Positions 9,996 to 30,875 of a DNA stretch of 64,000 bases are shown here, piece by piece (position 1 is the first letter of the stretch; every line of letters begins with the position of its first letter). Location of the stretch: the IMG/VR virus record IMGVR_UViG_3300027710_000009. One strand, written 5' to 3'. This DNA is from a virus. Its lineage: Duplodnaviria > Heunggongvirae > Uroviricota > Caudoviricetes. The position numbers and the translations under genes are program-made. The notes beneath the pieces are model-generated. The model searched no databases, was not told the DNA's origin, and saw only the letters and a program-made list of their open reading frames with translations.

Positions 9996-10170
9996 AGTGG
10001 TTTAAGATACAATCGCTAGGGTCATGTTCTTCACGTAGTGCAATTTCTGCACATTGCTTGACCAATTCGGTGGCAAACTTTTCCAACAGCTCACCGCCCA
10101 CACCAGGGTAGTGTGATCCACCTGTTGCTAGTGCAATATCAAAAAATTTAGGGTTTTTCATTTTACTCAT
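9967..10170 (-). CDS. Small hypothetical protein (EKFA...CAEI...HFGV family)
   Basis: Shares EKFA-x-LV-x-x-C and HFGV with the 8999 and 9235 genes. Confidence 0.55.
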   Translation of the reverse strand: MSKMKNPKFFDIALATGGSHYPGVGGELLEKFATELVKQCAEIALREEHDPSDCILNHFGVSREQTT

Positions 10171-11473: not shown

Positions 11474-11880
11474 GATACTTCGGTTCTACCGTCACCTAGG
11501 TCTTTACGGCTAATGACTCTTGGATCAGTTTGGTTAGCGGCCCACTGCTCAAAGTTTTCCTGCAGGACATTACGGCAAATGGTTTGGAACCAACGGTCCA
11601 CAATGTCTGCATCCGTTTTACCTTCGTAACCAGCCTTGACCAATTTGGCCAAGAAAGCATCATTCCAGTCTAGTTCAAATGCACCGTTGCCCACATCATC
11701 TTTGTCCAACTCAATGCTAACAATAGACACATAAGGCTCGCCACGTTTGGTAGCGGCCTCTTTTGGTCCAGTGGCTTTGACTTTGAGTTTTGGTTCAACA
11801 GACTTTTTTGCAGTTGTGGTTTTTTTAGCAGGTGCTTTTTTGGCCACAACTTTTTTTGCAGGCGTCTTTTTGGTTACCAT
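11470..11880 (-). CDS. Hypothetical protein with Lys/Ala/Pro-rich N-terminal tail
   Basis: MVTKKTPAKKVVAKKAPAKKTTTAKK followed by a globular domain; TAATG overlap with queE. Confidence 0.6.
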   Translation of the reverse strand: MVTKKTPAKKVVAKKAPAKKTTTAKKSVEPKLKVKATGPKEAATKRGEPYVSIVSIELDKDDVGNGAFELDWNDAFLAKLVKAGYEGKTDADIVDRWFQTICRNVLQENFEQWAANQTDPRVISRKDLGDGRTEVS

Positions 11881-12773
11881 TACTTGCCCCAGCCATTTCC
11901 CCAAAGGTCCACATGCAGTCGCGGGCTGTAGTAATATCCAAGTTTCAATGCTTCGTCAGCAATGCGCTTTTTGTTAACATCATACAGTTCTGTTGTGCCA
12001 CCAACTGGCATCACATACACATGGCCCATAAACCCTGCGGCACGGTATTCGTCTACCGCACTTTTTACTTCCATCAGGTCTTCAAAATCTGAAACAACAA
12101 ATTTTAGATATGTAACACCAACATGTTGATAATCAGCAATTACTTCAGGACAGATAGCATCAGCCCACTTCTCGCCACTCTTGCTCAGTTTAGGACTAAT
12201 GCTAAATTGCATTTCACGGAAACGACCAATGTACTCTTGATGGTCGGCTTCGGTGGTGCCACGCCATTCGGTATGCCATTCTTGAATATAGTCTTTGAAC
12301 TTTTCATCCAACATCTGAGTGCCATTGGTTTCAAATGTAATATAATCAAGATCTATCATTCTTGGATGACTTAACAGTTCAGAATACACACGTTGCCAAC
12401 CCAACAATGGCTCACCGCCTGTGATCACCAGATGCACAGGGTTGCCAATGTATTGTTGCCATTTGCCATTAGGGGTAAGAGCCAGTAATTCGTCTACAAT
12501 AGTGTCAATGTCTTTTGTGGGACTAAGATCTTTGAACTTGGGATCCCATGAGGCATAGCTGTCACAGCCAGTATGTACCAATGGTAATTGTTCAAATTTA
12601 GAATATTTGCTTGCATCAACGGCATCGCGTTCTGTACTAACTTCACCCTTGGGCATGCCAAATCCACCACAGGTAAAATTACAACCAAATGTACGCAAGA
12701 ACACGCTAGGCACACCTATGTATCTGCCTTCGCCTTGCAGGCTGTAGAACATTTCGCTTACTTTCAATTTCAT
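11880..12773 (-). CDS. queE: 7-carboxy-7-deazaguanine synthase (radical SAM), atypical Cx3Cx34C motif
   Basis: SEMFYSLQGEG...PSVFLRTFGCNFTC...GCDS, VITGGEPLL, ITFETNGT, ISPKL, SPRLH. Confidence 0.9.
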   Translation of the reverse strand: MKLKVSEMFYSLQGEGRYIGVPSVFLRTFGCNFTCGGFGMPKGEVSTERDAVDASKYSKFEQLPLVHTGCDSYASWDPKFKDLSPTKDIDTIVDELLALTPNGKWQQYIGNPVHLVITGGEPLLGWQRVYSELLSHPRMIDLDYITFETNGTQMLDEKFKDYIQEWHTEWRGTTEADHQEYIGRFREMQFSISPKLSKSGEKWADAICPEVIADYQHVGVTYLKFVVSDFEDLMEVKSAVDEYRAAGFMGHVYVMPVGGTTELYDVNKKRIADEALKLGYYYSPRLHVDLWGNGWGK

Positions 12774-13636
12774 AGTATTTCCTCTTTGATTTTATTATAC
12801 AGTGTTTCAAAATTGTCGTCTAGCCATTCATCCACCGTTTGTGGATTCCAATTTGGAACAACTGACTTTAGCTTATTTAGGTCCGCTAGACTCTCCCACT
12901 GATATTTTTCAATCATATGATCAGGCATGGGAGCAATGCATACTTGAGCATTGTCCATGCCCATATGCTTTTGAATCAGCTTGGCAATGTCTTCAAATGT
13001 CAGCTGTTGGCCTGTGCCTAGGTTGTAAACGCCACTCACTCTTGCATCTTTCAGCGCCAGCATGCCCTTGATGCAGTCATCCACGCTGATAAAATCTCGT
13101 GAGCCCAGACGATTGTTGTGGTGCCACACTGTAAGTTTACGTGTGGTTATTGCATTCTCAATATATCTGCGGACTGGACTTGGCTGGTTCTTGTGACCTT
13201 CGTTGCGTCCATATACATTAAAGAAACGCACACCTTGTACAGGCACAGTAAATTTTTGTTCTGCACACCACATGTCAATAGCAATCTTGCTCACACCGTA
13301 GTAGTGCTGTGGCTGGAATGGACCCCACTCTGGGCTACCCGACCACGGCCCGTACACACTGGCACTTGATGCGTAGGTAATACCACAGTTGTGTTCTTGT
13401 GCAAACCGGATCCAGGCTTGGGTGTCTTCAATATTCTTCTTGACCAAAGCTGACCAGTCAGTTACATTGGTTTCGCTGATGGCACCCATGTGAAAAATCC
13501 ATTCAATGGGTTCTTCAGCAGTCCAGGTCCGACCTCTATCAGCCCAATCTAGACTGTGTACCTTGTGGCCGTGCTCCACAAGATGTTGTTTTAATTCGCT
13601 TCCTATAAAGCCACGGTCACCGGTTACTATTATCAT
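12770..13636 (-). CDS. NAD-dependent epimerase, ADP-L-glycero-D-manno-heptose-6-epimerase (HldD/RfaD)-like
   Basis: IIVTGDRGFIG, FHMGAISET, YASSASVYG, YGVSK (YxxxK), RFFNVYG, RDFISVDD. Confidence 0.75.
   Translation of the reverse strand: MIIVTGDRGFIGSELKQHLVEHGHKVHSLDWADRGRTWTAEEPIEWIFHMGAISETNVTDWSALVKKNIEDTQAWIRFAQEHNCGITYASSASVYGPWSGSPEWGPFQPQHYYGVSKIAIDMWCAEQKFTVPVQGVRFFNVYGRNEGHKNQPSPVRRYIENAITTRKLTVWHHNNRLGSRDFISVDDCIKGMLALKDARVSGVYNLGTGQQLTFEDIAKLIQKHMGMDNAQVCIAPMPDHMIEKYQWESLADLNKLKSVVPNWNPQTVDEWLDDNFETLYNKIKEEIL
12794..12822 (-). promoter_or_regulatory. Sigma70-type promoter upstream of queE
   Basis: TAGACG (12822-12817), 17 nt, TATAAT (12799-12794), then GAGG RBS. Confidence 0.55.
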
Positions 13637-14103
13637 CTTCCCTCATCTAAATGTGGCCACGTTCCCTCTGGCGCCGTTCTATAATTACCCTTGCCCGGAA
13701 TCGTGTGTCGTACACCGCCCACAGGATCCGCGACGTCGCCCGTTTTACGGGGAATAAGATGTATATGAGGCCAAGACACAGTTTGTCCAGCAGCCTGGCC
13801 GTAATTAAGTCCAATGTTGAAACCGTCCCATTCGCCATCATCAACCTTTTCTTTTCCGTAATTGAATGCATCTTCAAATGCATCCTTGAGCACACCCACA
13901 GCATTGTACTTGGGTACAAACAACAGATGGCCGTCTGTGACAGGATATCTGTCGCGATACACTGCCACATGGAAATCCTGCCTTACGCTGTCAGTCCAAG
14001 GTGCTTCACTTTCTTCAATCGTTTCTGGAAGATCTTCAAAGATTTCTTGTCTCATATTACCCTTCGTAGATTGCAGAATTGCCTGCGTGTTCAAATACTT
14101 CAA
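13633..14103 (-). CDS. HIT family nucleotide hydrolase
   Basis: YPVTDGHLLFVPK and AGQTVSWPHIHLIPR (HxHxxP). Confidence 0.85.
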   Translation of the reverse strand: MKYLNTQAILQSTKGNMRQEIFEDLPETIEESEAPWTDSVRQDFHVAVYRDRYPVTDGHLLFVPKYNAVGVLKDAFEDAFNYGKEKVDDGEWDGFNIGLNYGQAAGQTVSWPHIHLIPRKTGDVADPVGGVRHTIPGKGNYRTAPEGTWPHLDEGR

Positions 14104-14614
14104 CAGAGATTAATTTAACACGTGGATGCTCGTCACCCAGTAAATTTTGATACTTGTTTGTGGGATCATTGCGCAACCAGTCAGCAGTCCAGGCATACAC
14201 ATACTCAGCAAATGCTTCACAACCCACAGCAGGCATCATTACCAATTTTGCCACACCTTTGTTGCCTACAGGATGTACCTGTACTTCATCTGCTTTTCCG
14301 TGCATGTCTTTGATTGCACTCCACCCAGCCATCTTCTGAAAATGCTTGAGCAGTGGGTCATCTTCTGCAACAATCATGGTATGGTCAAATGTTTTTTCAA
14401 GGAACTCTTTGACTTCGTCTAGGCCGCCAAAGTCTTGTACCCAATTACGTTCATCAAGTTGTTCTGCTTCGAATACAAATTTGAAACCTAAACTGTATCC
14501 ATGTAACAGACTGCAATGACTATGCGTTGCGGCATGTTGACGGAAGGTACAGCTTAGGCCTCGATCGTTGCCATAAGTTTTTGTGCTAAATCTACGTGAC
14601 ATTGAAAACTCCAA
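14057..14614 (-). CDS. queD: 6-carboxy-5,6,7,8-tetrahydropterin synthase, copy 1 (start probably 14602)
   Basis: SHCSLLHGY, NWVQDFGGL, FDHT, VGCEAFA, VFEHAGN. Confidence 0.85.
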   Translation of the reverse strand: MEFSMSRRFSTKTYGNDRGLSCTFRQHAATHSHCSLLHGYSLGFKFVFEAEQLDERNWVQDFGGLDEVKEFLEKTFDHTMIVAEDDPLLKHFQKMAGWSAIKDMHGKADEVQVHPVGNKGVAKLVMMPAVGCEAFAEYVYAWTADWLRNDPTNKYQNLLGDEHPRVKLISVEVFEHAGNSAIYEG

Positions 14615-14633
14615 GAGTAGTTGAAAGTAATGT

Positions 14634-14662
14634 AGTATAACATTAAACTAGGTATTAGTCAA
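14634..14662 (-). promoter_or_regulatory. Sigma70-type promoter dedicated to queD copy 1
   Basis: TTGACT (14662-14657), 17 nt, TATACT (14639-14634). Confidence 0.7.
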
Positions 14663-15161
14663 GCAAGTTTTCATTCCATTCGCGATGACCTTCGCGGAAA
14701 GCCATATTGCTTTGGGTTTCACGCACTTCCACACGATAGCACCACAAACGGGCGGCTTCGCTTGGACCCCACATGTCCGGAATGTAAACACCATTCACAT
14801 ACTTGTACAGCATGTCACTTAGTCCTTCACATCCTAGTCGTGGTAACACCACAATCTTGGCCATGTTCTTTTCTTGTAGCAGTTTGAATGTGGCCATTTC
14901 TGGATCATCTTGTGCTACGATCAAGGTGTGATCAAATTGATCTTCCAGGATCTTCTTGAGTTCTTTGAGTCCGCCATAGTCTGCGGCCCAGTTACGAACG
15001 TCTAGGTCATTGGTTCCAAAATAGAACTTCATTGAGAATGAGTAGCCATGTATTAGATTACAATGACTGTCACTCCTCCATTGACGATAAGCGCATGGGA
15101 ATGCGTCATGATACTCTTTGGTGCTTTGGTATTTGTATACCACTGGTTGTAGTGCTGACAT
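14655..15161 (-). CDS. queD: 6-carboxy-5,6,7,8-tetrahydropterin synthase, copy 2
   Basis: SHCNLIHGY, NWAADYGGL, FDHT, LGCEGLS, VRETQSN; TAAATA box upstream at 15245-15240. Confidence 0.85.
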   Translation of the reverse strand: MSALQPVVYKYQSTKEYHDAFPCAYRQWRSDSHCNLIHGYSFSMKFYFGTNDLDVRNWAADYGGLKELKKILEDQFDHTLIVAQDDPEMATFKLLQEKNMAKIVVLPRLGCEGLSDMLYKYVNGVYIPDMWGPSEAARLWCYRVEVRETQSNMAFREGHREWNENLLD

Positions 15162-15242
15162 GCTGTTTCTCCTATGTTGTGTAGCATAGGCTGGCAGAGT
15201 TTGATATAGCGGGGTGAAGCCAAGGCCGCTTGGAACAAGTAT

Positions 15243-15731
15243 TTATCGTGGGCTAGGGCCACCTGTATCATCTGCGCCCACTGGGTCAGGCCCTAGTTCC
15301 TTTTTGAACTTTTCTGCGGCATGCACACGTTGACGAAGTTCGCTAGAACTGAAACTGTGATCACGACCATTGAAATACAATTCAATGCCTCGCTTGTGAC
15401 AAATTTCACGACCTGTAAACTCTTTGCCTTCGTATTCCACACCCAAGATACGTACATCAATTGGTAATGTGAGCAACAAGTCTTCAAGATCTTTTTCTGT
15501 GTTGTAGACCCAAACTTCATCCACAAACTTGCAACCTTCTAGTTGTAGTTGTCGTTCTACAATACTTTGAATAGGTTTGTTTTTTGTTGAACGATCCAAT
15601 GTGGGATCGTTTTGTAACCCTGCAATCAAATATTCGCAGTGCTCTTTTGCTTCTTTGAGCATGGCAATGTGCCCTGCATGTAGCAAATCAAATGTTGAGG
15701 CTGTGAAGCCAACTTTCTTACTGTTTAACAT
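15243..15731 (-). CDS. HxGH nucleotidyltransferase (glycerol-3-phosphate cytidylyltransferase/TagD-like)
   Basis: GFTASTFDLLHAGH, KPIQSIVER, VDEV, FSSSELR. Confidence 0.8.
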   Translation of the reverse strand: MLNSKKVGFTASTFDLLHAGHIAMLKEAKEHCEYLIAGLQNDPTLDRSTKNKPIQSIVERQLQLEGCKFVDEVWVYNTEKDLEDLLLTLPIDVRILGVEYEGKEFTGREICHKRGIELYFNGRDHSFSSSELRQRVHAAEKFKKELGPDPVGADDTGGPSPR

Positions 15732-15734
15732 CTT

Positions 15735-16295
15735 TTAGTTCTCCCACCAATTTTCCCAAGGAAACACAATCCAACATGGTGTTTCCTGTTTGTTAATTTC
15801 TGTGCCGCAGTAGTCCACATCTTGGAAACCGCTGGATAGATTGTCTACCATCACAGCAAAGCGCACACTATCATGCCAGATATCTGCCCAGGCTGGATCT
15901 TTGGGCAAGCAACCACTTGGCCAGTCTTGTTTGATGTAGTTCAATGTGCGACCCGAGTCATTGATATCGTCAACAACAAGAATCTTCTTGCGCAGGGCAG
16001 GATCGGTTGTGACTCGATCTGCAGGCGCTGGCAACTCAGTACCTTCATATGGCACATAACCAAACGCATCTTCGGCCATCCACAAATTGCTTTCAGGACC
16101 AAGGTCGTTGTCGCGAAAGCTGATGTTCAAGGTATGCATGGGCACATCAAGATAATGACTCAGCATAGTGGCAGGCACAAGTCCGCCACGTGTGATACCT
16201 GCAATGTAGTCTGGGCGCCAGTTATCCTGCGCCATGTCTCGAATGATCTTATGCACCCAGGTGTTTAGATGTTTGTTGTTGTGAATCAGTTTCAT
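15735..16295 (-). CDS. Type I phosphoribosyltransferase (purine PRT-like)
   Basis: IAGITRGGLVPA, ILVVDDINDSGRT PRPP loop, WIVFPWE. Confidence 0.85.
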   Translation of the reverse strand: MKLIHNNKHLNTWVHKIIRDMAQDNWRPDYIAGITRGGLVPATMLSHYLDVPMHTLNISFRDNDLGPESNLWMAEDAFGYVPYEGTELPAPADRVTTDPALRKKILVVDDINDSGRTLNYIKQDWPSGCLPKDPAWADIWHDSVRFAVMVDNLSSGFQDVDYCGTEINKQETPCWIVFPWENWWEN

Positions 16296-16627
16296 AGTTG
16301 AGGCTCCGGTACCTTACAGTCGTGGTTGATAATGTTGTCTATATACTTCATAATAAAAAGGCTGGCTTCTGGTGCAAATTCTTCGCGCAAGTGAATGATG
16401 TAGGTGCCACTACCATCGTTGAATTGGTGGCTCCAGTCACCCTTGCCCATGCGTATGCGATAGTGCTTGTCAGTTCTATGCCGGCCTCTGTGCGTGTGGA
16501 ATTCATCGCTAATTTCCTGTGCTTCAGCACCCATCATGACCCAGAAGTCTACCATCTCTTGAGAAAGAGCATTGGTATGAATCTTAAACGGACGAAGTGC
16601 TACTACGCCGGGTGAGATAATCTTCAT
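16292..16627 (-). CDS. Hypothetical protein
   Basis: Co-oriented ORF, ATGA overlap. Confidence 0.5.
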   Translation of the reverse strand: MKIISPGVVALRPFKIHTNALSQEMVDFWVMMGAEAQEISDEFHTHRGRHRTDKHYRIRMGKGDWSHQFNDGSGTYIIHLREEFAPEASLFIMKYIDNIINHDCKVPEPQL

Positions 16628-17054
16628 TGTGTTCCCAATTTGTTTTTGGATCTTTGCCTGTTAAGAATCCCCATTCACGAGTATGCGGTCCAGGCATAAA
16701 CAATGTCCAGGCAGTTACGCCAGGATCCAGTTCGATGCGATGATAACTGCTAGCACTGCAAGTGCGAAAGTGTCCGGGCCCACGCCAGTGACGAGCTTCT
16801 CCAATTTTAATACCAGTTGAGTTAAACTCCGGAATCCATTCATAATAACCACCTTTCAAGATCAGTGTTGCATACGGCCAAGGATGATCATGAACATCAT
16901 CTGGGTCGCCTTTTAAGAACTTGTGTAAAAATACATTGAACGGAAAACGTTCACGCTCTTTGAGAAACAGGTAATAGCGTTCCAAGTATGGCTCGTTGTT
17001 GATACGATCATATATGATACGTTTACGCCCTAGACGTTCAAGTAATTTTAACAT
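16584..17054 (-). CDS. Cupin-like metal-binding protein
   Basis: LHKF...DVHDHPW...LILKGGYYE...YHRIEL resembles cupin HxH...E...H. Confidence 0.55.
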   Translation of the reverse strand: MLKLLERLGRKRIIYDRINNEPYLERYYLFLKERERFPFNVFLHKFLKGDPDDVHDHPWPYATLILKGGYYEWIPEFNSTGIKIGEARHWRGPGHFRTCSASSYHRIELDPGVTAWTLFMPGPHTREWGFLTGKDPKTNWEHNEDYLTRRSSTSSV

Positions 17055-17571
17055 TTTTTGTTCCTACAGACGAACCTTTGTAGCTGGATTTTAACAGATC
17101 TTCCACACGTTCTGCAACCGTTGATGTTGCCGTTGATGTAACAGGAGGAACTGCACCAAATCCTACGTCTGAGGTTCCGCCTTGTGCCCAGATGGTTCCC
17201 GGAGGATAAGTTCCAGGTTGTGGCGGCCAACCAGTGCCTCCACCTGTGTTAGGCACAATGGTGGGGTGTACATAAGGGCCAAACGGCATGCCGCCACCTC
17301 CAAGTCCTCCGCCAGGGTAGACCCTCTTGTTCTGTTGGTCCGACTCAAGTCTTTCCAACCTCCGAAGTATTGTATGTTGGTCTTCAAACATACGGCGCAT
17401 TGGGCCATTACGTCGATCGTGTTGTGCATGGTTACGAGCCAACGCACAAATAACCATTAGATGCTGTAGTGTCTTTTGCACACTAGGATCATCACTAGTA
17501 AGTGCTTCATCAAACAAGTCAATGAATGCTTCTAGATCAAAGTCTGCCGAATCTTTTTCTCTATGGCTCAT
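17038..17571 (-). CDS. Hypothetical protein with Pro/Gly-rich C-terminal half
   Basis: Co-oriented 177-aa ORF. Confidence 0.55.
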   Translation of the reverse strand: MSHREKDSADFDLEAFIDLFDEALTSDDPSVQKTLQHLMVICALARNHAQHDRRNGPMRRMFEDQHTILRRLERLESDQQNKRVYPGGGLGGGGMPFGPYVHPTIVPNTGGGTGWPPQPGTYPPGTIWAQGGTSDVGFGAVPPVTSTATSTVAERVEDLLKSSYKGSSVGTKNVKIT

Positions 17572-17572
17572 G

Positions 17573-17803
17573 TTACCACTCCGATGCTGAATTGTCGTCT
17601 AGATATTTGTCAACCATTGCATTTGCTTCTGCAAGGTCTACTGCGTGTACGGTAAATGTCATCATTCCGTCTTTGATTGCAATGTCAAATGGCACTTTTC
17701 CACCAAAGATAAAACTCTCAGGCTGAGGTTTAATGATGCGGAACTTCTGCATCTTACGAGCCCTCTCGATTAAGTTTTGTGCAAATTCCGCGGCATTTTT
17801 CAT
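17573..17803 (-). CDS. Hypothetical protein
   Basis: Co-oriented ORF, ATGA overlap with folE. Confidence 0.55.
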   Translation of the reverse strand: MKNAAEFAQNLIERARKMQKFRIIKPQPESFIFGGKVPFDIAIKDGMMTFTVHAVDLAEANAMVDKYLDDNSASEW

Positions 17804-18570
17804 CTTGGTGCAAACTCCTGTTGTAGTTTAATGTTGTCAAAGAATTCCTTCTTTGTATTACCATCGTCCTTGAATGCACCTTTAAGCACAGTAGTCTGTG
17901 TTAAACTAGAGTGTGCCATGATGCCGCGATTCTCACAGCATCCGTGCGTGGCTTGAATATACACACCTAGGTCTGTGGCTCCTGTGGCTTTTTGTATTTC
18001 TCGTGCGATGTCATTGGCCAGTTCTTCTTGTAAAGTACCACGCCTAGCACACCACTGAGCAATGCGAGTATACTTAGATAAACCAATGAGCTTTTCGGCA
18101 GCGATGATTCCAATATAGGCGACCCCAGTAACTGGTTGATGATGATGACTACACATACTGCGCAATTCACTGCGTACAACCAACATGCCTTCGTAACGGT
18201 CTGTTGAATCATTAGGAAATGCTGTTGCGTCTGGTGCTGTGTCATATCTACCTGCCATTATTTCATTGAAGTACATCTTGGCCAGGCGTCGGGCTGTGCC
18301 TTGGCTGTTGGGATCGGTTTGTCGATCAATTAGTAGCGTGTCTAACACAAGTTCAAATGCCGCTGTGGCTTCGTCAATCAATTGCTCTTTGGCTTTGTCA
18401 TCAACATAGTCACTGATGTTGTCGCCTGCCCAGAAACGTTTTTTGTCTCTGTTCATTTTGAATGCGATCTGTTTGTGTGCTGTACCTAGTTCGTAGCCGC
18501 CATCGCCTGCCATGGCATCCAGTGCTGTTTCGTCTGGATCGTTGCTAATGTATACTTTGTTGTATGTCAA
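17800..18570 (-). CDS. folE: GTP cyclohydrolase I
   Basis: TARRLAKMY, SMCSHHHQP, IGLSKYTRI, LQEEL, HGCCENRG; probable TTG start at 18570 after GGAG. Confidence 0.92.
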   Translation of the reverse strand: MTYNKVYISNDPDETALDAMAGDGGYELGTAHKQIAFKMNRDKKRFWAGDNISDYVDDKAKEQLIDEATAAFELVLDTLLIDRQTDPNSQGTARRLAKMYFNEIMAGRYDTAPDATAFPNDSTDRYEGMLVVRSELRSMCSHHHQPVTGVAYIGIIAAEKLIGLSKYTRIAQWCARRGTLQEELANDIAREIQKATGATDLGVYIQATHGCCENRGIMAHSSLTQTTVLKGAFKDDGNTKKEFFDNIKLQQEFAPR

Positions 18571-18610
18571 TTTGTTCTCCGAGTTAATAGTCGTGGATGA
18601 CTTTGTTTGT

Positions 18611-18639
18611 ATTGTAAGATTATTTAGATGATTTGTCAA
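18611..18639 (-). promoter_or_regulatory. Sigma70 promoter of folE with nested TAAATA
   Basis: TTGACA (18639-18634), 17 nt, TACAAT (18616-18611); TAAATA at 18626-18621. Confidence 0.7.
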
Positions 18640-19591
18640 TGACATGTGGTAGGTTATTATACCACTTCCAGGCTGATTCAATAATGGTCTTGAGGTCTGA
18701 ATGTGCAGGACTCCAGCCCAGCGTGGTCTTTGCCATTAGATTGCCTGCTACCAGTTGTGCTGGATCACCTGGTCTTGCTGGCGCCTTGGTCAGTTGCACG
18801 GTACCAACCAACTGCGCAACCAAATCAATGATCTCTTGATTGCTGGCACCAGTACCTGTGCCAAGATTCAATGCCATACATTCCTGCATGTCGCTCATGA
18901 GATACTGCACAGCCATAACATGTGCGGCGGCTAGGTCAGTCACGTGTACGTAGTCACGCACATGAGTGCCATCACCGTACAGTGTGAATTCTGTGTTATC
19001 ACGTACACTTTCCAATAGTCGTGCAATAATGTGTGTGGCACCAGGTTCTTGGCCTAGTTCACTGTCAAGATCTGCGCCGCAGGCATTGAAATAGCGTAGA
19101 CTTGCACTTTTCATTCCATATGCACGATTGTAATCAGTAAGCATGATTTCAATCATGGCCTTGCTAGTACCATACGGGCTCAGTGGACTGTATGGTGTGT
19201 GCTCGTATATGACCTTGGCATCCGGATTGCCATACACAGCGGCTGAACTAGAAAACACAATCACTGGCATCTTTTCCAACCAACGTGCCACATCCAACAA
19301 TGCCGCAGTCTTGGCCACGTTGTTGGTATAGTATTCAGCAGGATCACTCATGCTAGGACCAACAAGGCTGGTACCTGCTAGATGAATGATAGCATCTGGT
19401 TGTTCGTAGGCCAGTGCATCAAAACACACAGGACTATGATAGTCAGCTTCAATAAAGCGATCCATGTGCTTTATAGTATGTTCACGATGCACACGGTCAA
19501 GGCCAACTACTTCATAGCCGTCCTGCTTGAGTTGTTTGCACACATGGCTACCAATGTAGCCTGTTGCACCTGTTACAAATATTTTTGTCAT
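18620..19591 (-). CDS. galE: UDP-glucose 4-epimerase-like extended SDR
   Basis: VTGATGYIG, HLAGTSLVGPS, FSSSAAVYG, YGTSK, LRYFNACGA, RDYVHVTDLA. Confidence 0.82.
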   Translation of the reverse strand: MTKIFVTGATGYIGSHVCKQLKQDGYEVVGLDRVHREHTIKHMDRFIEADYHSPVCFDALAYEQPDAIIHLAGTSLVGPSMSDPAEYYTNNVAKTAALLDVARWLEKMPVIVFSSSAAVYGNPDAKVIYEHTPYSPLSPYGTSKAMIEIMLTDYNRAYGMKSASLRYFNACGADLDSELGQEPGATHIIARLLESVRDNTEFTLYGDGTHVRDYVHVTDLAAAHVMAVQYLMSDMQECMALNLGTGTGASNQEIIDLVAQLVGTVQLTKAPARPGDPAQLVAGNLMAKTTLGWSPAHSDLKTIIESAWKWYNNLPHVIDKSSK

Positions 19592-20565
19592 TAGCACTCC
19601 GAATCTAGAATAATTTTATCTAGTTCGTCACGCAGGTCTTGCTCGTCAGGATTGTAAGCAATACCCTGCCACTCTTTGATTTTGAGTTCTTCAGTGCCAC
19701 TGCCGTCTTCTTGCCAAGAACTAATCCAACGTGAGCCAGTCCATTTGGCCTGATGTGTGTAGCTGTTCTTACCAGCAGTCTTGATATTGTAAACACCTTC
19801 ACGCACAGGCTGAACTTTCTTTGGAAACCACTCAGTCATAGTGTACACAATGTCATCCATGTTGGTGTACTTTTCCCACTTGCCATCATTGTGTTTTTGT
19901 GAACCAGCAATGTACATGCCAAAGTCTGAACTCTTACCATCTGTGTTGCCACCGTTGTTGTCAATGTCTTCGTCGTCGTAGGTTACAGTATTGATAATTT
20001 CTTCGCCATCAACTTCGTCGTAACCCAAGCACAGTTTGGTAATATCAAAAGGTTCTTTGAGTTCAATCTCTCCTTCAAAGAATGTGCCTTTTTCATTACT
20101 ACTGCCAAGAAACACTACTGTACCGTCAGCTTGAGAACCAATCCAAACTTCGTCACCACATGACCAGTCTGGACCATCTTCACCACCGCCATCAATGGCA
20201 TCAAAACTCTTTTCAAATACAGCGTTACCGTTTTCGTCCAAGATTTGCAGTGTGCCAGCATTGCGGCTAACACCATGCACATGGCCCATGTTGTCGCAAT
20301 CGTACCATGAGCCTGGAGAAAATGGCCACATGTCTTCTGGAATGTTGTTGTCTTCTGCATAGTCACTATCCCAAGCAAAGTCACTTACATCTAGTCTACG
20401 TTGCTTGAAGTAATCGTAAATCTTGCGATCCACAGTACCCATGACTTTCTCGCCACCGTAGCCCCACATGCAGATGCTGTAGGTGCGTGGTGTAAACTTG
20501 AGCACTTGAATCAGACGCTCTTGTTCTGCAAGTTTTTCTGCTTCGGTTTGTTTCTTTGTTGCCAT
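19591..20565 (-). CDS. Hypothetical acidic protein
   Basis: 324-aa co-oriented ORF. Confidence 0.6.
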   Translation of the reverse strand: MATKKQTEAEKLAEQERLIQVLKFTPRTYSICMWGYGGEKVMGTVDRKIYDYFKQRRLDVSDFAWDSDYAEDNNIPEDMWPFSPGSWYDCDNMGHVHGVSRNAGTLQILDENGNAVFEKSFDAIDGGGEDGPDWSCGDEVWIGSQADGTVVFLGSSNEKGTFFEGEIELKEPFDITKLCLGYDEVDGEEIINTVTYDDEDIDNNGGNTDGKSSDFGMYIAGSQKHNDGKWEKYTNMDDIVYTMTEWFPKKVQPVREGVYNIKTAGKNSYTHQAKWTGSRWISSWQEDGSGTEELKIKEWQGIAYNPDEQDLRDELDKIILDSEC

Positions 20566-20567
20566 GA

Positions 20568-21263
20568 TTATTTTCTTTCGCCAAACAACTGTAACAAGTT
20601 TAGGAACAAATTGATAAAGTTCATGTACAAAGACAATGCGCCTGTTACTTCCACGGCTGGACTGGTGTCAACACTGACTTCTTCACGAATACGTTGTGTG
20701 TCGTATGCTGTTAGTCCCAGGAAGATGATAATGGCCAATGCACTGATAACCATCTGCATTACGGTACTACCAATAAAGATGTTTACAATGCTGGCAATCA
20801 CAATAGCAATCAAGCCCACAAACATCATCTGGCCCATTGAGCTTAGATCCTTTTTAGTAAAGTAGCCATAGCCACTCATCACCCCAAACAAGATTGCCGC
20901 ACCCATGAACGCACTAACAATTGACCCCATGTTGAACACAGCAAAGATCATGCTAAAGCTCAATCCCATAAGTGCCGCAAAGCCATGCAAGCATAGTTGT
21001 GCCACACCTTTACTGGGGTTGTTACCCAGAACATAGCTCACGCCAAAGATTGCCGCCAGCGGTGCAAAGATCACAATCCACTTTAGCACACCTGTAAAAA
21101 AGAATTGTAGCAACTCTGGACTGGTGCCTACAAAATAACTCACAAACATTGACACAAGCACAGCCAGACTCATGTGTCCGTATACACGACCCATTGCTGA
21201 GTTGATTTCGCTTGCAGAACGATAGTTCATTATGCCACCGTCTGTATAATTTGCTCCAAACAT
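20568..21263 (-). CDS. Bax inhibitor-1/YccA family membrane protein
   Basis: About 7 hydrophobic segments; TKKDLS, LTAYDTQRI, ALSLYMNFINLF C-terminus. Confidence 0.85.
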   Translation of the reverse strand: MFGANYTDGGIMNYRSASEINSAMGRVYGHMSLAVLVSMFVSYFVGTSPELLQFFFTGVLKWIVIFAPLAAIFGVSYVLGNNPSKGVAQLCLHGFAALMGLSFSMIFAVFNMGSIVSAFMGAAILFGVMSGYGYFTKKDLSSMGQMMFVGLIAIVIASIVNIFIGSTVMQMVISALAIIIFLGLTAYDTQRIREEVSVDTSPAVEVTGALSLYMNFINLFLNLLQLFGERK

Positions 21264-21264
21264 A

Positions 21265-21489
21265 TTAAATCTCCTTCTTGAGTATTGATACTAGTTTACA
21301 TTGTTCGTAGAGTTTTGTCAAGTCTACTGCACCACCAACGCCATCCTGAGCATAGTAGTTCATACCATGTCCCCAGGCATTTACTGTGTTTTGATAAACG
21401 TCGGTGGCGTATTCTGGACCAACTTCTTTCCACCAAAGTTCTTCCGTGAGCATTTGGTACCAAAGTTCAAAATCAAAATTTTGACTCAT
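21265..21489 (-). CDS. Hypothetical protein
   Basis: Co-oriented small ORF. Confidence 0.45.
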   Translation of the reverse strand: MSQNFDFELWYQMLTEELWWKEVGPEYATDVYQNTVNAWGHGMNYYAQDGVGGAVDLTKLYEQCKLVSILKKEI

Positions 21490-22663
21490 GTGTGTGCTTG
21501 CGGTAGTCTGTGCTCATACGCAACCATTGCTCGCCCTTGCCTTCAAGGATGTCCACAATACGATCAACTGTGCCATTGGTCCAGTCTGAAATCTTGCCTT
21601 GATTAGCATGCGGCTTACGAATTAACTTTTCCAACTTGCCAATAGCATCTTCCAGACTCCAGGGTATGTAAAGACGTTCTAGGTCGTTAGCAAAAGTCTC
21701 GGGAAAACTTCTATAAGCAGGGTAAAGAACATTAGTACCCAAAGTATCCGCTTCTGAAACTGTGTTAGATACCCAGTCTTGTAATGCACAATTAAACAAA
21801 ACCCTTGTATCAGCAAGCAAAGTATAGTAATCATTTTTCTCTAGGTCCTCGTAGATTGTAAGCAATCCACGTGCCTGCAGATCTCTGGTACGAGCCATGT
21901 AGCTGTCGTTGTTGCTTTTTAGTTTGGCACCAGAAAACAACGCAAACTCCAGGCGCTCACCTGGATGACGTTCTGCCCACAGCTCAATTAGATCCATATA
22001 GAAGTCTGGTTGCTTCTCTTGATCCCAACGTGCGGCAAAGCCCACACGGAATGCTCGTTTGTCAAATGGCTTGAGCTCACCTGGCACACGTTCACGTACT
22101 TCGCTCTTGCCAAATGCCAAGCCTGAAATATTGTAGACGGGAGCAGTCCAGCCCGCTACCTTCATGTGCATGACCATCTCTTCATTGGTAGCCAACACAG
22201 CACCACCAGAGATAGACACAATGTCATTGACCATGCGTTCATAGTCCATCATCCACTTGCCCATACCCCATACATGAACAAAGTCATCTGGATCAATTGC
22301 CTGCGCCAAACAGCGTACAAAAATACGTGGACGCATTTCTTGCGGAACTTGGTTGATAATGTAACCAAGACTTTCAAAGCCCGGCTGGAACATGTCTTCA
22401 AAGTAGATCACATCTTCACTGGTGACTTCGCCTTGTTGCATGAGTCGCACAAGATTCATCATCTGGCTCATGCCAAAGTAACTGCGACCGTGTGCATCTA
22501 ACACTTGACCCACAACAATCTTTTGACTGTTGTCTAGGGTCAAGCCTGGCACGTAGACTACATCTAGTCCACGTGCATCAAACACACGCTTGTTCCACTC
22601 TGTCAGTTGCAGAGTATATCGAGCCTTGTAAGACTCCAAGCCCATGTAGTATAGCTTACGCAT
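21473..22663 (-). CDS. GT-B fold glycosyltransferase (GT4-like)
   Basis: GFAARWDQEKQP (R..xxK), ALQDWVSNTVSEA (Ex7E-like), VLYP; likely start MRKLYY at 22663. Confidence 0.7.
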   Translation of the reverse strand: MRKLYYMGLESYKARYTLQLTEWNKRVFDARGLDVVYVPGLTLDNSQKIVVGQVLDAHGRSYFGMSQMMNLVRLMQQGEVTSEDVIYFEDMFQPGFESLGYIINQVPQEMRPRIFVRCLAQAIDPDDFVHVWGMGKWMMDYERMVNDIVSISGGAVLATNEEMVMHMKVAGWTAPVYNISGLAFGKSEVRERVPGELKPFDKRAFRVGFAARWDQEKQPDFYMDLIELWAERHPGERLEFALFSGAKLKSNNDSYMARTRDLQARGLLTIYEDLEKNDYYTLLADTRVLFNCALQDWVSNTVSEADTLGTNVLYPAYRSFPETFANDLERLYIPWSLEDAIGKLEKLIRKPHANQGKISDWTNGTVDRIVDILEGKGEQWLRMSTDYRKHTHESKF

Positions 22664-22973
22664 TGCGGTAGTTGCTCCGGAAGTTGTTGCCTTTATAACC
22701 ACCTTGTCCGCCTTCACGACGAGGACCTGTGTACGGCTTGCGTACTTCGTTGGGATCCTTGTTGGCCCAGTTCCATTGGTTCTTTGCGTAACCACGTTCT
22801 TGGAACTTCAAGAAGTCAATGAAGTCACGGTCACGTTCGTTGTACAGCGCAGCCTCATTAAACAGTCTGCCGTGACTTACACAGAACTCTTTGTACTTTT
22901 CTAGATCCTCATAGATCTGTTCTACTTCTGGCTTCATGCGAAGATATTTCTCTAGCCATTTAGGTTGTGCCAT
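22656..22973 (-). CDS. Hypothetical protein
   Basis: AGGAG RBS; overlaps the GT start. Confidence 0.6.
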   Translation of the reverse strand: MAQPKWLEKYLRMKPEVEQIYEDLEKYKEFCVSHGRLFNEAALYNERDRDFIDFLKFQERGYAKNQWNWANKDPNEVRKPYTGPRREGGQGGYKGNNFRSNYRNA

Positions 22974-22987
22974 CTTGATTTCTCCTA

Positions 22988-23431
22988 TTAGACGGGATGG
23001 TAAAAGGTTTTCTCGGGTTGACGTGGATCGCGGTATACAATCTCACATCCGTTTTCGTCGTCCTCGCTCACACTGAGTATAACATGTCTGCCAGGATAAC
23101 GCGAGTTGATTTGGACATATAAGTCATCTGCGATCATTTCGCAACTCTTATAGTCGAGTTGCAAACTATTTGGTTGTCCCGAATACAGTGATTCAAGCCA
23201 CCTTTTGAATTGAATAAATTCGATGTCCCTGTCGTTGTGGAAGACACTGATTGACACCCGGAAATGGAAAATATGGCGATGAGGATAGCCAAGAAAAGAT
23301 ACGTCTGCAAGTTTAGGATCCTCCAAGGCAGCGGGATATTTGTGAATGCCTTCTTTCTGGAACTTTACCCAGATCATGCGTTCTGCTACTTCGCTGTTGA
23401 TTTCAGTTTGTCTTCTTTCATCATATGTCAT
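22988..23431 (-). CDS. dpdL: QueD-like T-fold protein with LxxxHRHxF motif (DpdL-type, putative CDG decarboxylase)
   Basis: LGYPHRHIF = LxxxHRHxF; KSCEMIADDL and VSEDDENG T-fold motifs. The dpdL assignment rests on my recall of the published motif. Confidence 0.7.
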   Translation of the reverse strand: MTYDERRQTEINSEVAERMIWVKFQKEGIHKYPAALEDPKLADVSFLGYPHRHIFHFRVSISVFHNDRDIEFIQFKRWLESLYSGQPNSLQLDYKSCEMIADDLYVQINSRYPGRHVILSVSEDDENGCEIVYRDPRQPEKTFYHPV

Positions 23432-23943
23432 TTTATTACCTCGTCTTGAGTATATTTAGACCAGTCTGTAAACACAGCACGATTTTTTAGGTCATGTAAA
23501 CTGTGACACCATACGCCTGGATTTGTTGCTTCAAAATCTTTGTCGTCAATCTTGATAGTAGTGTTGTAATTGTATAGTTTGGCATAGGGCAATTTTACAC
23601 TGATCATTGGAATAAATCTAGAGTGATCAATTAGTGTGCCTTCAAGCAAACCTTCTGCGGCTGTTACGTCGACGTCTAGTGTACACCAGACTCCGTGCAT
23701 CAAACAGTTACCGATCATGGTTTCCCAACGTCGCCATTCATCACCATTGTTTGTGTCAGGATTGGTAAAACTTTGATTGGCACCAAAGTAGATGTGTTCG
23801 CAGTTGTTTTTTTGTGCCAGGCCCACTATACGTGCAGGATCTTGTACACCAATAACAAACAGTGTGCGCATGCCAAATGCCGGTGAGTGTTCTACTTCTG
23901 TTCCAACAAAGAAGTCAGCGCCATCGTGCTCTGGACGATCCAT
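23428..23943 (-). CDS. Unknown protein translationally coupled to dpdL
   Basis: EVEHSPAFGMRTLFV, HIYFGANQSF, KIDD...NPGVWCH; ATGA overlap with dpdL. Confidence 0.6.
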   Translation of the reverse strand: MDRPEHDGADFFVGTEVEHSPAFGMRTLFVIGVQDPARIVGLAQKNNCEHIYFGANQSFTNPDTNNGDEWRRWETMIGNCLMHGVWCTLDVDVTAAEGLLEGTLIDHSRFIPMISVKLPYAKLYNYNTTIKIDDKDFEATNPGVWCHSLHDLKNRAVFTDWSKYTQDEVIK

Positions 23944-24257
23944 TATGATACCTTTAGTGATTCAACGGTTATGATATGAGCAATGCTTTGCCCTAGATCT
24001 TGATCATCAGAAATAAGATGCAAGTTAGTGGTTGTGCGGTCGGTACGACGATCGTTGTATCGAACTTCCATTACATATCCATTTTCTGCACGGAACATGC
24101 GAAAGTTCAAGTCTGGGTTACTGTCCATGCGATCTCTTGACACTAACTCAGCGGTTTTAATTCCAATTGAGTTTAGAGTATAACTTTGTTTTTCATCTTG
24201 GGAATTCTCCCATGCTCGGCGCACTTTTTTAGCTATCCATTTATCAAACCAATTCAT
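23943..24257 (-). CDS. Hypothetical protein
   Basis: Co-oriented ORF with TAATG overlap. Confidence 0.55.
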   Translation of the reverse strand: MNWFDKWIAKKVRRAWENSQDEKQSYTLNSIGIKTAELVSRDRMDSNPDLNFRMFRAENGYVMEVRYNDRRTDRTTTNLHLISDDQDLGQSIAHIITVESLKVS

Positions 24258-24439
24258 ACTTCACCTTTGTGTTGCTGTTGCAATTTTTGGATTTCGTCTT
24301 TGTATTTTAACTTCTGACGCTTGAGTTCCGCAACCTTTGATTCGTCCACATGAGGATGACGTTCCATTTCGTTGAGTTTGAGATCAAGCACTCTGTGTGC
24401 TTCTTCCAAATGTTTAACACGATTTGTCCAATCACCCAT
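24254..24439 (-). CDS. Small coiled-coil protein (DUF465/YdcH-like)
   Basis: LEEAHRVLD...ELKRQKLKYKDEI. Confidence 0.55.
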   Translation of the reverse strand: MGDWTNRVKHLEEAHRVLDLKLNEMERHPHVDESKVAELKRQKLKYKDEIQKLQQQHKGEV

Positions 24440-24443
24440 TTGT

Positions 24444-26042
24444 TCACCCTCCGTGGTCAAGTCTAAGTATGTCTCCAAGTCTACTCTCTGCTGAATCTTT
24501 TGCCATTTCCTCATCTTGTTCGGTCTCCTCGGTTTCTTCTTCTACATATTCAAACAGCGCATTAAATTGCGTAAGTGGATTAACAGTCTTGTCACCTTTG
24601 AATCCACGTGTGCCAATGATGTCCATCCAATAGCGTTTGTAATATTCAATAATGTCCAAACTTGCTTGTTTAGTTGGCGCGGCAAAAATAGCGTCCACAA
24701 TGTCACGGAACTTGGCATGATCACCTGTGCGCTTTTTAGTACCTTCGTTCCACATCATGTTAGGCCATCGGCCTGCATCGTATTCACGATTGGCACGTTG
24801 TACTGCTTCGATGTGTGTCCACACGTTGTGTCCCATCATGAGTGCATAGCTGAAGCTGTCCCAGCTGGTCTTGCCCTCTTTGCCGATCTTGTTCAAATCG
24901 CCCGGCTTGTATATACATACATCTTTGATCTGTAAATGCTGGCTTATTGGGCTCTCGTCAAAATGCGGAAAGATTCCATCCTGTAGTACTACATCGCGGA
25001 ACATTCGTGTATCAACGGCATATTTTTTGTCGTCTGCACTTGGACTCATTCGATAACACCATTTATCATTGTGTGGCAAATCAATATGATGATACATTTG
25101 TCCATTAGCAGTGGCTAGAAAAGGACTAGCACAGTCAAAGCTGATAGTAAATGCAGGGTTAACGTATTTGCGAACTGCACGTTGAATGTCAGTGAGCAAG
25201 ACTGCCCACTCTAGTTTACTTGTGCCCAAGAAGTGCATCCAGTCATGAACTCCCTCTTGTAACAAGTTATCGTAGCGTAATGCTACCAGTCTGCGTAGCA
25301 CTAGATCTACGTCACACATGTTTTGACCACCCATTGACCAACCGTCAAAGTGAGTGTCAGGATATTTCACAGGATCACAATATTCCTTCATGGTCTGATA
25401 CCATTCTTCAGCTGAAGTATGATTATCGCCTTGTAGAACATTTAAGAATTTTGCACCGCCGTTCTTTTTTCCTTTACGATGTTTCATAAAGTATTCGTTA
25501 TTGAATTTGGTAGCGGCCACTGCTTCATCCAGTGTGGTAATCTGACAAGCCTTGCTAGCTTTCTTGTCGTGAATAACCCAAGTTGGAATATCCAAGATCA
25601 TTCCATAGTCGGCAATCTCGTCCAACCACTTTAGAACAGAACTGCGTTTCTTTTCAGCTTTGGCACAACCTGAATTGGCCTTCCAGTCGCCTTCCCACAG
25701 GCCCTTGGCAATCTGGAATCCACCAGAGTCACCTAGCATGAACGTACCTGGCTCACGCTTGCGAACCATGTCTTCACTAGGATCATCTTTGTTGAGATCT
25801 AGATTGGCATGACCACCCGAGTACAGGCTCCACTTGTATGGGAACAATGCCTTCTGACTGTTAAGCCAGTTCATCTGTTCCATGTCGGGCATTCCAGCTG
25901 GCATACGTGCAGGATCTATGTAGTCATTGTTCACACGCTGTTTGCCTATGAAGGTAGCATAGAAGCCACTGATAGCTGGCAAGAACACAGCATAGTCTAG
26001 CTGTTTGCTAGTTAGATCATCTTGTTCAGGCTTCTTGTCCAT
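24444..26042 (-). CDS. dpdA: TGT-fold 7-deazaguanine base-exchange enzyme (DpdA family, probably DpdA2-like)
   Basis: TGT motifs in order: LGDSGGFQ, MILDIP, VLQG, GWSMGG, MHFLG, SFDCASP. No C-terminal CxCxxC Zn site of tRNA TGTs. Confidence 0.8.
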   Translation of the reverse strand: MDKKPEQDDLTSKQLDYAVFLPAISGFYATFIGKQRVNNDYIDPARMPAGMPDMEQMNWLNSQKALFPYKWSLYSGGHANLDLNKDDPSEDMVRKREPGTFMLGDSGGFQIAKGLWEGDWKANSGCAKAEKKRSSVLKWLDEIADYGMILDIPTWVIHDKKASKACQITTLDEAVAATKFNNEYFMKHRKGKKNGGAKFLNVLQGDNHTSAEEWYQTMKEYCDPVKYPDTHFDGWSMGGQNMCDVDLVLRRLVALRYDNLLQEGVHDWMHFLGTSKLEWAVLLTDIQRAVRKYVNPAFTISFDCASPFLATANGQMYHHIDLPHNDKWCYRMSPSADDKKYAVDTRMFRDVVLQDGIFPHFDESPISQHLQIKDVCIYKPGDLNKIGKEGKTSWDSFSYALMMGHNVWTHIEAVQRANREYDAGRWPNMMWNEGTKKRTGDHAKFRDIVDAIFAAPTKQASLDIIEYYKRYWMDIIGTRGFKGDKTVNPLTQFNALFEYVEEETEETEQDEEMAKDSAESRLGDILRLDHGG

Positions 26043-26379
26043 GCTTCTTTTCTTCTAGTGTTAGTGCATCCATGATCTGAAACTGCTCCCAAGCACTCTT
26101 TAGTCCTGGGTGCCGCTTCATGCGATCATGCAAGTCTTTTTCTTCTTGCATCTTACGCCGTGCCCAATCAATGGCTTCTTGGGTAATAGGATCCAGGCTA
26201 ACAGTGGCATAACTGGTGCTCATGTTGATCCATGTTGTACCATCAAACACCTGCATGTCTGTTCCGTTGACACGGAGCATACCCTGTATGGGATTGCTGG
26301 CATTTGAGTTAACATACGGAACACTGGTGTTACCACCATCCACTACTACTCCGCGACTGCCCATTAGACCTTTAATCAT
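26026..26379 (-). CDS. Hypothetical protein
   Basis: Co-oriented ORF. Confidence 0.55.
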   Translation of the reverse strand: MIKGLMGSRGVVVDGGNTSVPYVNSNASNPIQGMLRVNGTDMQVFDGTTWINMSTSYATVSLDPITQEAIDWARRKMQEEKDLHDRMKRHPGLKSAWEQFQIMDALTLEEKKHGQEA

Positions 26380-30803: not shown

Positions 30804-30875
30804 AGTTCTCCTTTGTGCGACTTCTAGCTCACACACACTCTACTTGCTGTTTAGTGTCCAGCGTGACAAAAATAT

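Follow-up and report, generated by a model that had tools for sequence, protein, structure and literature searches.

One of the few purine modifications known from phage DNA, the replacement of guanine by 7-deazaguanine, makes many restriction systems ineffective. In the Cellulophaga phage phiST, FolE, QueD, QueE, DpdL and DpdA3 make up a system through which all G is replaced by dDG, the unsubstituted 7-deazaguanine (PMC10516641). DpdL was defined as a QueD paralog in which CxxxHGH has turned into LxxxHRHxF, occurring in phages that have DpdA, FolE, QueD and QueE without QueC (PMC10516641). The phage DpdA2 proteins of Vibrio phages nt-1 and VH7D were shown experimentally to insert preQ0 or preQ1 into DNA (PMC10516641), and the DNA of the Pseudomonas jumbo phage PA5oct (Wroclawvirus) resists G-site restriction enzymes and is sensed as containing modified G, the only enzymes named in that work being QueE and a PTPS (PMC12191111). 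The tubercidin pathway of Streptomyces tubercidicus comprises TubC/A/B, the transferase TubE, which joins 7-carboxy-7-deazaguanine (CDG) to phosphoribosyl pyrophosphate (PRPP), and the UbiD decarboxylase TubF (PMC6112128). Here we analyze a 64-kb stretch of one large freshwater phage (IMG/VR record IMGVR_UViG_3300027710_000009; hereafter the window) and in it a gene cluster at 11880-26042 that the initial annotation had read as a locus for QueC-independent 7-deazaguanine modification of DNA.

The five activities on which that reading was built, FolE, QueD (two copies), QueE, a DpdL-type protein and a DpdA-like protein, are all encoded on the minus strand and are borne out by family, motif and fold evidence. 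The reading itself is supported by homology and context, through the gene families, the tRNA-guanine transglycosylase (TGT) fold of the DpdA-like protein, the related loci and PA5oct. On this support, the cluster would write 7-deazaguanine into the phage DNA in place of guanine, blunting host restriction. The arrangement is not due to chance, since it recurs in all 80 relatives fetched and in several cultured phages. The pathway type was already known, having been published in 2023 (PMC10516641); the new elements are a divergent family of transglycosylases, the extent of the clade and a set of conserved partners, namely a GT4-type glycosyltransferase (GT), the UDP-glucose 4-epimerase GalE, a purine phosphoribosyltransferase (PRTase) and a 171-aa protein.

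Comparison with Described Deazaguanine Systems

The locus has no megablast match among cultured phages, and the nearest cultured homolog of its DpdA-like protein is found in PA5oct (35% identity; E 2e-80 by local blastp, 3e-67 by tblastn). The PA5oct genes EST35_0314 to 0325 share the order family-B DNA polymerase (PolB), 243-aa protein, DpdA-like protein, GT4, DpdL, PRTase-like protein, QueE and RNase H. They differ from the window in several respects: the transglycosylase is annotated as hypothetical, DpdL has HFH rather than HRH, the 171-aa homolog lies ~26 kb away, and a Hef-like homing endonuclease gene breaks the polymerase gene (216595-221821) into two parts, whereas that of the window is an uninterrupted open reading frame (ORF).

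Acidovorax phage ACP17 has the same parts list, with QueD, FolE, the 171-aa homolog gp122 (E 1e-12), the DpdA2-type gp123, the GT4 gp124 (E 3e-11), DpdL gp125 and QueE gp126, and its cluster also lies in a replication module, that of a T4-like phage. However, gp123 is clearly a DpdA2 by our typing, having 34-36% identity to the enzymes of nt-1 and VH7D, whereas the window protein reaches gp123 by profile only.

The phiST system resembles the locus in its QueC-less gene set, its LxxxHRHxF DpdL, its CxxxHGY QueD and the position of the cluster between the CDG genes and the polymerase. Its transglycosylase, however, has 259 aa against 532 aa here, and its cluster contains a MazG-like gene instead of GT4, GalE, PRTase or a 171-aa homolog. 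The DpdA2 proteins of nt-1 and VH7D have a catalytic core homologous to that of the window protein and the nt-1 protein is a structural neighbor among viral models, but both clusters contain QueC (VH7D also QueF) and the two proteins have no BLAST-level similarity to the window protein. A substrate different from theirs is expected, because the 532-aa family goes with DpdL and without QueC. Outside phages, the tubercidin pathway is similar in that it uses CDG independently of QueC, has a PRTase of the purine type among its clustered genes and leads through decarboxylation to an unsubstituted 7-deazapurine; it differs in that the product is a free nucleoside antibiotic, the decarboxylase is of the UbiD type instead of a T-fold protein, and a TGT-fold protein is missing.

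A Divergent TGT-Fold Protein Nearest to DpdA2

The predicted DNA-guanine transglycosylase of the cluster is a DpdA-like protein of 532 aa (24444..26042, minus strand) with a divergent TGT fold. Its family was recognized through structure and through profile-profile comparison, direct searches having found nothing. In a Foldseek search of the PDB with its AlphaFold (AF2) model (mean predicted local distance difference test score, pLDDT, 89.6), the top 50 matches were all TGTs (E ~3e-7). A second aligner (VIA) placed the model on T. maritima TGT 2ash with Z 19.2 (root-mean-square deviation 4.2, 301 residues aligned) and on the archaeosine TGT (ArcTGT) 1iq8 with Z 18.6. The model thus has the TIM barrel that defines the TGT superfamily fold.

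The catalytic residues are retained as well. Two aspartates, D105 of the DSGGFQ motif and D303 of SFDC, do not vary among 67 homologs, and D151 of LDIPT is conserved in at least 90%; they are the counterparts of D102, D280 (the nucleophile, followed by C281) and D156, respectively, in Z. mobilis TGT. This register was set by motif and by hhalign to DpdA2 rather than by side-chain superposition, and the Z. mobilis numbering is corroborated by mutant names in PDB titles. By motif register, Trp and Met/Phe of the family take the places of L231 and V233 of Z. mobilis TGT in the pocket around C7, which might point to a small substituent.

Profile comparison identifies DpdA2 as the nearest known group. 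Against an alignment of seven proteins of the DpdA2 type, among them the validated nt-1 and VH7D enzymes, hhalign gave a match over the catalytic core (97.3%, E 1.8e-11, 183 columns), in which the DSGGxQ, D-x-IP, HxLG and S-(F/Y)-D columns of the two families line up. ACP17 gp123 was matched at 96.4% (E 1.4e-9), and phiST DpdA3 (CGPG_00065) only weakly (62%, E 7e-5, 81 columns). Furthermore, the viral structure models of BFVD gave matches to phage TGT/DpdA-like proteins, nt-1 DpdA2 (E 2e-8) ranking far above phiST DpdA3 (E 7e-3). The family itself is large, with 944 cluster representatives at E <=1e-3. Together, these comparisons indicate that the 532-aa protein is probably a DpdA homolog on a branch of its own, nearest to DpdA2, and we do not file it as a member of either DpdA2 or DpdA3. 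Fold, catalytic aspartates, homology and context all point to guanine exchange in DNA as its predicted activity.

A Bona Fide Member of the DpdL Family

The DpdL-type protein (147 aa; 22988..23431, minus strand), a proposed CDG decarboxylase, was assigned by motif and homology. Its signature, L47-G-Y-P-H51-R-H53-I-F55 (LGYPHRHIF), is an exact LxxxHRHxF, and it has 57% identity to ACP17 gp125 (E 2e-45) and 35% to phiST CGPG_00067 (E 1e-17). The motif is kept in six of seven aligned DpdLs, the PA5oct protein having HFH, and H30, H51, H53, C97 and E98 together with Glu-Asp positions are invariant across all seven. The genomic context that belongs to the family, DpdA, FolE, QueD and QueE with no QueC, is found both in the window and in a complete relative (G001).

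The protein has no Pfam PTPS match. Aligned by hhalign with phage QueDs it gives 69.7% over 42 columns in the C-terminal third, which is too weak to prove a T-fold alone, and a weak profile match to the PTPS homolog 2dj6 (E 0.4) pairs HGHTF with HRHLF; for phiST DpdL, the published HHpred value for the T-fold is 99.9% (PMC10516641). From its sequence, the window protein is a bona fide member of the DpdL family, for which CDG decarboxylation is the proposed activity.

Enzymes of CDG Synthesis

The three enzymes that would supply CDG are recognizable by family. FolE, a GTP cyclohydrolase I (17800..18681, minus strand), matches PF01227 with 132.2 bits (cut-off 27; E 1.8e-38) and phrog_2197 (E 3e-44); it has an N-terminal extension of ~100 aa, its start being uncertain, and a median identity of 81% in 36 related loci. 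Two QueD paralogs, QueD-a (14057..14614) and QueD-b (14655..15161), both on the minus strand and 35% identical to each other, match PF01242 (E 1.4e-14 and 2e-14; PTPS 54.6 and 53.8 bits against a Pfam cut-off of 22.4) and phrog_2389 (E ~1e-35). QueD-a has 44% identity to the QueD of Synechococcus phage BUCT-ZZ01 and 34% to that of phiST; QueD-b, of the 6-carboxytetrahydropterin (CPH4) synthase type, has 51% identity to ACP17 QueD and aligns to the solved CPH4 synthase 7v0f. The catalytic Cys and the FDH motif (Asp-His) are invariant in the alignment.

QueE, the radical S-adenosylmethionine (SAM) CDG synthase (11880..12773, minus strand), matches phrog_2076 (E 2e-51), and its significant sequence matches in the PDB are the QueE structures 6nhl, 4njg and 5tgs only. 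The N-terminal signature specific to QueE, the GGEP motif and the three cysteines of the 4Fe-4S cluster are present (C31, C35 and C70, all conserved), with a spacing of Cx3Cx34C in which C70 aligns with the final Cys of the ACP17 QueE motif, a canonical CxxxCxxC. The insert of 34 residues that separates the second cluster cysteine from the third is common to PA5oct, BUCT-ZZ01 and Xanthomonas phage BUDD, but not to ACP17 and phiST. A pterin or folate role for FolE and the PTPS proteins was considered and rejected, as QueE, DpdL and the transglycosylase travel with them.

QueC and QueF

The claim that the window lacks QueC and QueF is upheld by three kinds of search. Pfam scans of the ORFs at 131-30836 found neither; tblastn of all 64 kb with a phage QueC and with an 88-residue N-terminal fragment of a phage QueF gave no match; and no SGGxDS PP-loop motif occurs in the six frames of the window. 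Likewise, no QueC, QueF or Pfam-TGT match was found in five relatives, one of which, G001, is a complete genome of 337 kb with terminal repeats and encodes a transglycosylase ~80% identical to that of the window. Weak QueC-like matches in relatives were rejected: in G001 they represent a 251-aa NadE-like NAD synthetase with SGGIDS and YGDGG motifs, encoded directly after queE (C1:190180-190935), which is the only weak PP-loop match there. This protein has no counterpart in the window.

Conservation of the Locus

The module lies in a single co-directional array of minus-strand genes that spans 10.1-30.8 kb, with spacings of -62 to +81 nt between RNase H and PolB. At its downstream end stands an RNase H/FEN-type exonuclease (10167-11186, minus strand). 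PolB (28143..30836, minus strand; PF00136 E 2.6e-32, PF03104 E 1e-16), which is 75% identical to its counterpart in the complete relative, forms the upstream border of the module. The initial annotation had the locus end next to a sliding clamp and the polymerase; the polymerase is confirmed by these two Pfam families, whereas the clamp label finds no backing. The product in question, a 243-aa protein encoded between PolB and the DpdA-like gene (26376-27107, minus strand), has no match in Pfam and no sequence match among solved proteins. It is kept in 79 of 80 relatives, and its PA5oct homolog is annotated as a virion structural protein, mass spectrometry having detected it in virions.

In IMG/VR, a scan identified relatives encoded on 552 stretches, 80 of which were fetched and compared, the per-gene counts being limited by flank length. 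Their transglycosylases are 76-87% identical to that of the window, and the cluster is conserved in 80 of 80. The conserved order is PolB, a ~320-aa protein, the 243-aa protein, the DpdA-like protein, the 171-aa protein (73 of the 80 loci), DpdL (65), a small protein, GT4 (55), GalE (46), FolE (36), QueD, PRTase and QueE. In all relatives, the DpdA-like gene lies within the replication module beside PolB.

Partner Genes

The predicted GT4-type (GT-B) glycosyltransferase (396 aa; 21473..22663, minus strand) was assigned by homology to relatives that pass Pfam cut-offs. As its start we take the ATG chosen by gene calling on near-identical contigs; the full ORF reaches 22795 from a GTG. Searches with the window protein itself gave no significant match in Pfam, NCBIfam or PHROGs; it has 61% identity to a BUCT-ZZ01 protein that adjoins DpdL and passes the PF13692 and PF00534 cut-offs, and its feature neighbors in the Atlas are GT4 clusters. 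Its homologs in BUDD (PF00534, 45.7 bits), ACP17 (gp124) and PA5oct (0317) sit between DpdA and DpdL. Indeed, GT4 homologs adjoin DpdL or DpdA in ACP17, the PA5oct group, BUDD/X1, Phosso, BCSR5, BUCT-ZZ01 and the present clade. GTs of the ACP17 type occur in 23 of 50,697 phage records, and 18 of those are among the 28 records with DpdL, in roughly seven independent lineages. BUCT-ZZ01 has a second GT4-like gene (68503-69846; 447 aa; PF13692 E 3e-5) between folE and a DpdA2-type gene, and thus two glycosyltransferases in a single deazaguanine cluster.

GalE (18620..19597, minus strand) passes the equivalog cut-off of TIGR01179 (299.3 bits against 262.3) and matches PF01370 (E 8e-59); its position after the GT is kept in 46 related loci and in the complete relative. 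The PRTase (15735..16295, minus strand; PF00156 E 2.6e-15) is of the 6-oxopurine type, its best PDB sequence matches being the purine PRTases 1vdm and 4z1o, then hypoxanthine-guanine (HGPRT) and xanthine-guanine (XGPRT) enzymes. Homologs adjoin QueE in the complete relative, BUCT-ZZ01 and PA5oct, and adjoin QueC in the DpdA2 cluster of Stenotrophomonas phage Ps15. The conserved 171-aa protein (23428..23943, minus strand), whose stop overlaps the dpdL start by 4 nt, is also found in ACP17 (gp122) and in PA5oct-like phages. Its model (pLDDT 74.7) reached a best Z of 7.3 in a search of all PDB representatives (STAS domains and partial barrels), and no fold was assigned; the AlphaFold Database clusters gave just one unnamed homolog, and the Atlas no usable match. 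Because GT4, GalE, PRTase and the 171-aa protein travel with DpdL in some seven phage lineages, the final product may be more than plain dDG.

Other genes of the module are smaller or less constant. A conserved 105-aa protein without a family match (22656..22973, minus strand) lies between dpdL and GT4 and holds the same position in 41 related loci. A HIT-family nucleotide hydrolase/transferase (13633..14103, minus strand; PF01230 E 2.4e-7) is kept within the cluster in the complete relative (59% identity) and in 13 related loci. Between queE and folE lies a variable sugar island inside the conserved module, holding heptose-type sugar-nucleotide genes in the window and ~10 kb of other sugar genes in the complete relative; the distance from dpdA to queE varies in relatives from ~10.6 to 22.6 kb, with differing sugar genes inside. 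In the window, the minus-strand genes found here include an HldD-like nucleotide-sugar epimerase (12770..13636; TIGR02197 183 bits, under the cut-off), whose position is not conserved in relatives, an RfaE-domain-II-like sugar-phosphate adenylyltransferase (15243..15731; PF01467 E 5e-12; phrog_7878 E 7e-33; TIGR02199 72.9 bits, under the cut-off) and a cupin (16584-17054). Between GalE and GT4 lies a gene for a Bax inhibitor-1/YccA-type membrane protein (20568-21263, minus strand; PF01027 E 1.3e-54); it occurs at that position in only seven related loci and is probably an inserted host-takeover gene.

Proposed Pathway and Alternatives

We consider it probable that the cluster synthesizes CDG, processes it in a DpdL step and exchanges the product into DNA after replication by means of the DpdA-like enzyme. 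FolE would convert GTP to dihydroneopterin triphosphate, the two QueD paralogs would yield CPH4 and QueE would form CDG, steps that are established enzymology for these families, to which the window proteins are assigned by homology. The DpdL-type protein, following the published proposal for its family, would convert CDG to unsubstituted 7-deazaguanine, and the 532-aa protein would then swap guanine in the double-stranded phage DNA for that base. The PRTase probably recycles the released guanine to GMP and GTP, feeding the FolE step, while GT4, GalE and the 171-aa protein probably act after or around the DpdL or the exchange step. Within this reading the base that ends up in DNA may be dDG itself or a derivative bearing a hexose, the plain and the sugar-bearing forms being about equally likely; the initial annotation was right to word the product cautiously, as dDG, dCDG or a derivative.

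Several observations weigh against the proposal. At the level of direct searches, the 532-aa protein has no family match in Pfam (E <=0.01), NCBIfam or PHROGs, and PF01702 is absent from five related records at E <=1; that model also misses the proteins of ACP17, BUDD and phiST known to be DpdA2 or DpdA3. A profile of 67 members gave only a chance match and no TGT among PDB sequences, and BLAST gave no pairwise link to the nt-1 or ACP17 DpdA2 or to phiST DpdA3. The zinc site of TGTs, CxCxxC...H, is missing: the region 370-410 has a single Cys (C375), and the family consensus lacks CxCxxC. Neither QueD has the zinc motif CxxxHGH, Tyr replacing the third zinc histidine to give CxxxHGY. The same variant is found in the QueDs of phiST, ACP17, BUCT-ZZ01 and RHph_I1_18, and it works in a deazaguanine pathway, because phiST has it and phiST DNA is fully dDG. 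FolE (135 against 202), QueD and QueE all score below the NCBIfam equivalog cut-offs. Beyond the window, the absence of QueC from this phage is judged by analogy with the relatives. The decarboxylase activity of DpdL is a prediction for the whole family, never shown biochemically, and co-expression of dpdL and dpdA from ACP17 or phiST in E. coli gave no dDG (PMC10516641). Finally, plain dDG as the end product leaves the conservation of the GT4/GalE pair unexplained.

This last point is addressed by an extension of the same pathway, in which GT4, fed with UDP-galactose by GalE, would add a hexose, so that the DNA would carry a sugar-bearing purine. The hexose could be added to the free base before insertion or to the base in DNA, in the style of T4 hydroxymethylcytosine, and variety in the donor sugar would come from the variable sugar genes of the folE-queE interval, in line with the changing dpdA-queE distance and its contents. 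We regard such a modification as a real possibility, somewhat short of an even chance. It is consistent with the position of GT4 beside DpdL or DpdA in several phages, with the concentration of ACP17-type GTs in DpdL records (18/23), and with the retention of the GT and of GalE, an equivalog by its score, in 55 and 46 related loci. Cui et al., having obtained no dDG from ACP17 dpdL and dpdA alone, proposed that enzymes were missing (PMC10516641), and HuiG of the huimycin pathway is a glycosyltransferase that acts directly on a 7-deazapurine base (bioRxiv 10.64898/2026.04.15.718813). On the other hand, the window GT lacks a Pfam, NCBIfam or PHROG match of its own, unsubstituted 7-deazaguanine offers no obvious hydroxyl acceptor, and phiST makes dDG without any GT. 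Sugar genes of large phages often target host envelopes, and our literature search found no report of a glycosylated deazaguanine in DNA. More tentatively still, we suggest that in the present clade and in ACP17, PA5oct, BUDD/X1, Phosso, BCSR5 and BUCT-ZZ01, GT4 with GalE and the sugar genes might glycosylate 7-deazaguanine, the 532-aa enzyme might represent a new DpdA subfamily and the 171-aa protein might be a further component.

The recurrent PRTase could instead suggest a route in which the deazapurine enters during replication. In analogy to TubE, a CDG-specific PRTase in a QueC-less pathway (PMC6112128), it would couple CDG to PRPP; DpdL would decarboxylate the nucleotide, which after reduction and phosphorylation would be incorporated by the polymerase, the TGT-fold protein being auxiliary or otherwise employed. 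The adjacency of the PRTase to QueE in the complete relative, BUCT-ZZ01 and PA5oct and the conservation of the HIT nucleotide enzyme in the cluster agree with this scheme. We consider it unlikely, however. The PRTase also occurs in the QueC-containing DpdA2 cluster of Ps15, which fits general salvage better, the TGT-fold protein keeps its full set of catalytic aspartates under strong conservation, and no dedicated kinase or UbiD-type decarboxylase is seen in the cluster. Furthermore, every phage known to have 7-deazaguanines encodes DpdA, and insertion is considered post-replicative (PMC10516641).

That the TGT-fold protein acts on host or phage tRNA, the cluster being a queuosine-like tRNA pathway, is very improbable: fold and catalytic residues are indeed those of tRNA-guanine transglycosylases and DNA specificity cannot be read from sequence, but the 64-kb window contains no tRNA genes, the gene lies beside PolB in the replication module in all relatives, the zinc subdomain motif of TGTs is missing, the closest recognizable relatives are phage DpdA2 proteins shown to modify DNA (PMC10516641), and PA5oct DNA is restriction-resistant at G sites (PMC12191111).

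Neighboring Genes

A twitch-domain radical SAM protein of 453 aa (131-1492, minus strand; NF033640 316.9 bits against a cut-off of 170) is encoded ~10 kb downstream of queE and has weak homologs in five related loci. Upstream of the polymerase lie genes for a fatty-acid desaturase (PF00487; 31466-32221, minus strand) and a ferritin-like protein (PF00210; 33116-33553, minus strand), called from gene calls on a near-identical contig; both are auxiliary metabolic genes unrelated to the deazaguanine module.

Implications for the Phage Clade

The preferred reading, in which CDG is processed by DpdL and exchanged into DNA by the 532-aa enzyme, would make the DpdL route without QueC a standard feature of giant freshwater phages in a very abundant clade, beyond a few Cellulophaga phages. 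Annotation that relies on Pfam and NCBIfam would miss these loci, because the transglycosylase escapes the models tried. The four partner genes, for GT4, GalE, PRTase and the 171-aa protein, could account for the failure so far to reconstitute the DpdL step, and they suggest a purine that possibly bears a sugar. If this is true, such a glycosylated purine, with a sugar on 7-deazaguanine, would be a class of DNA base not previously described.

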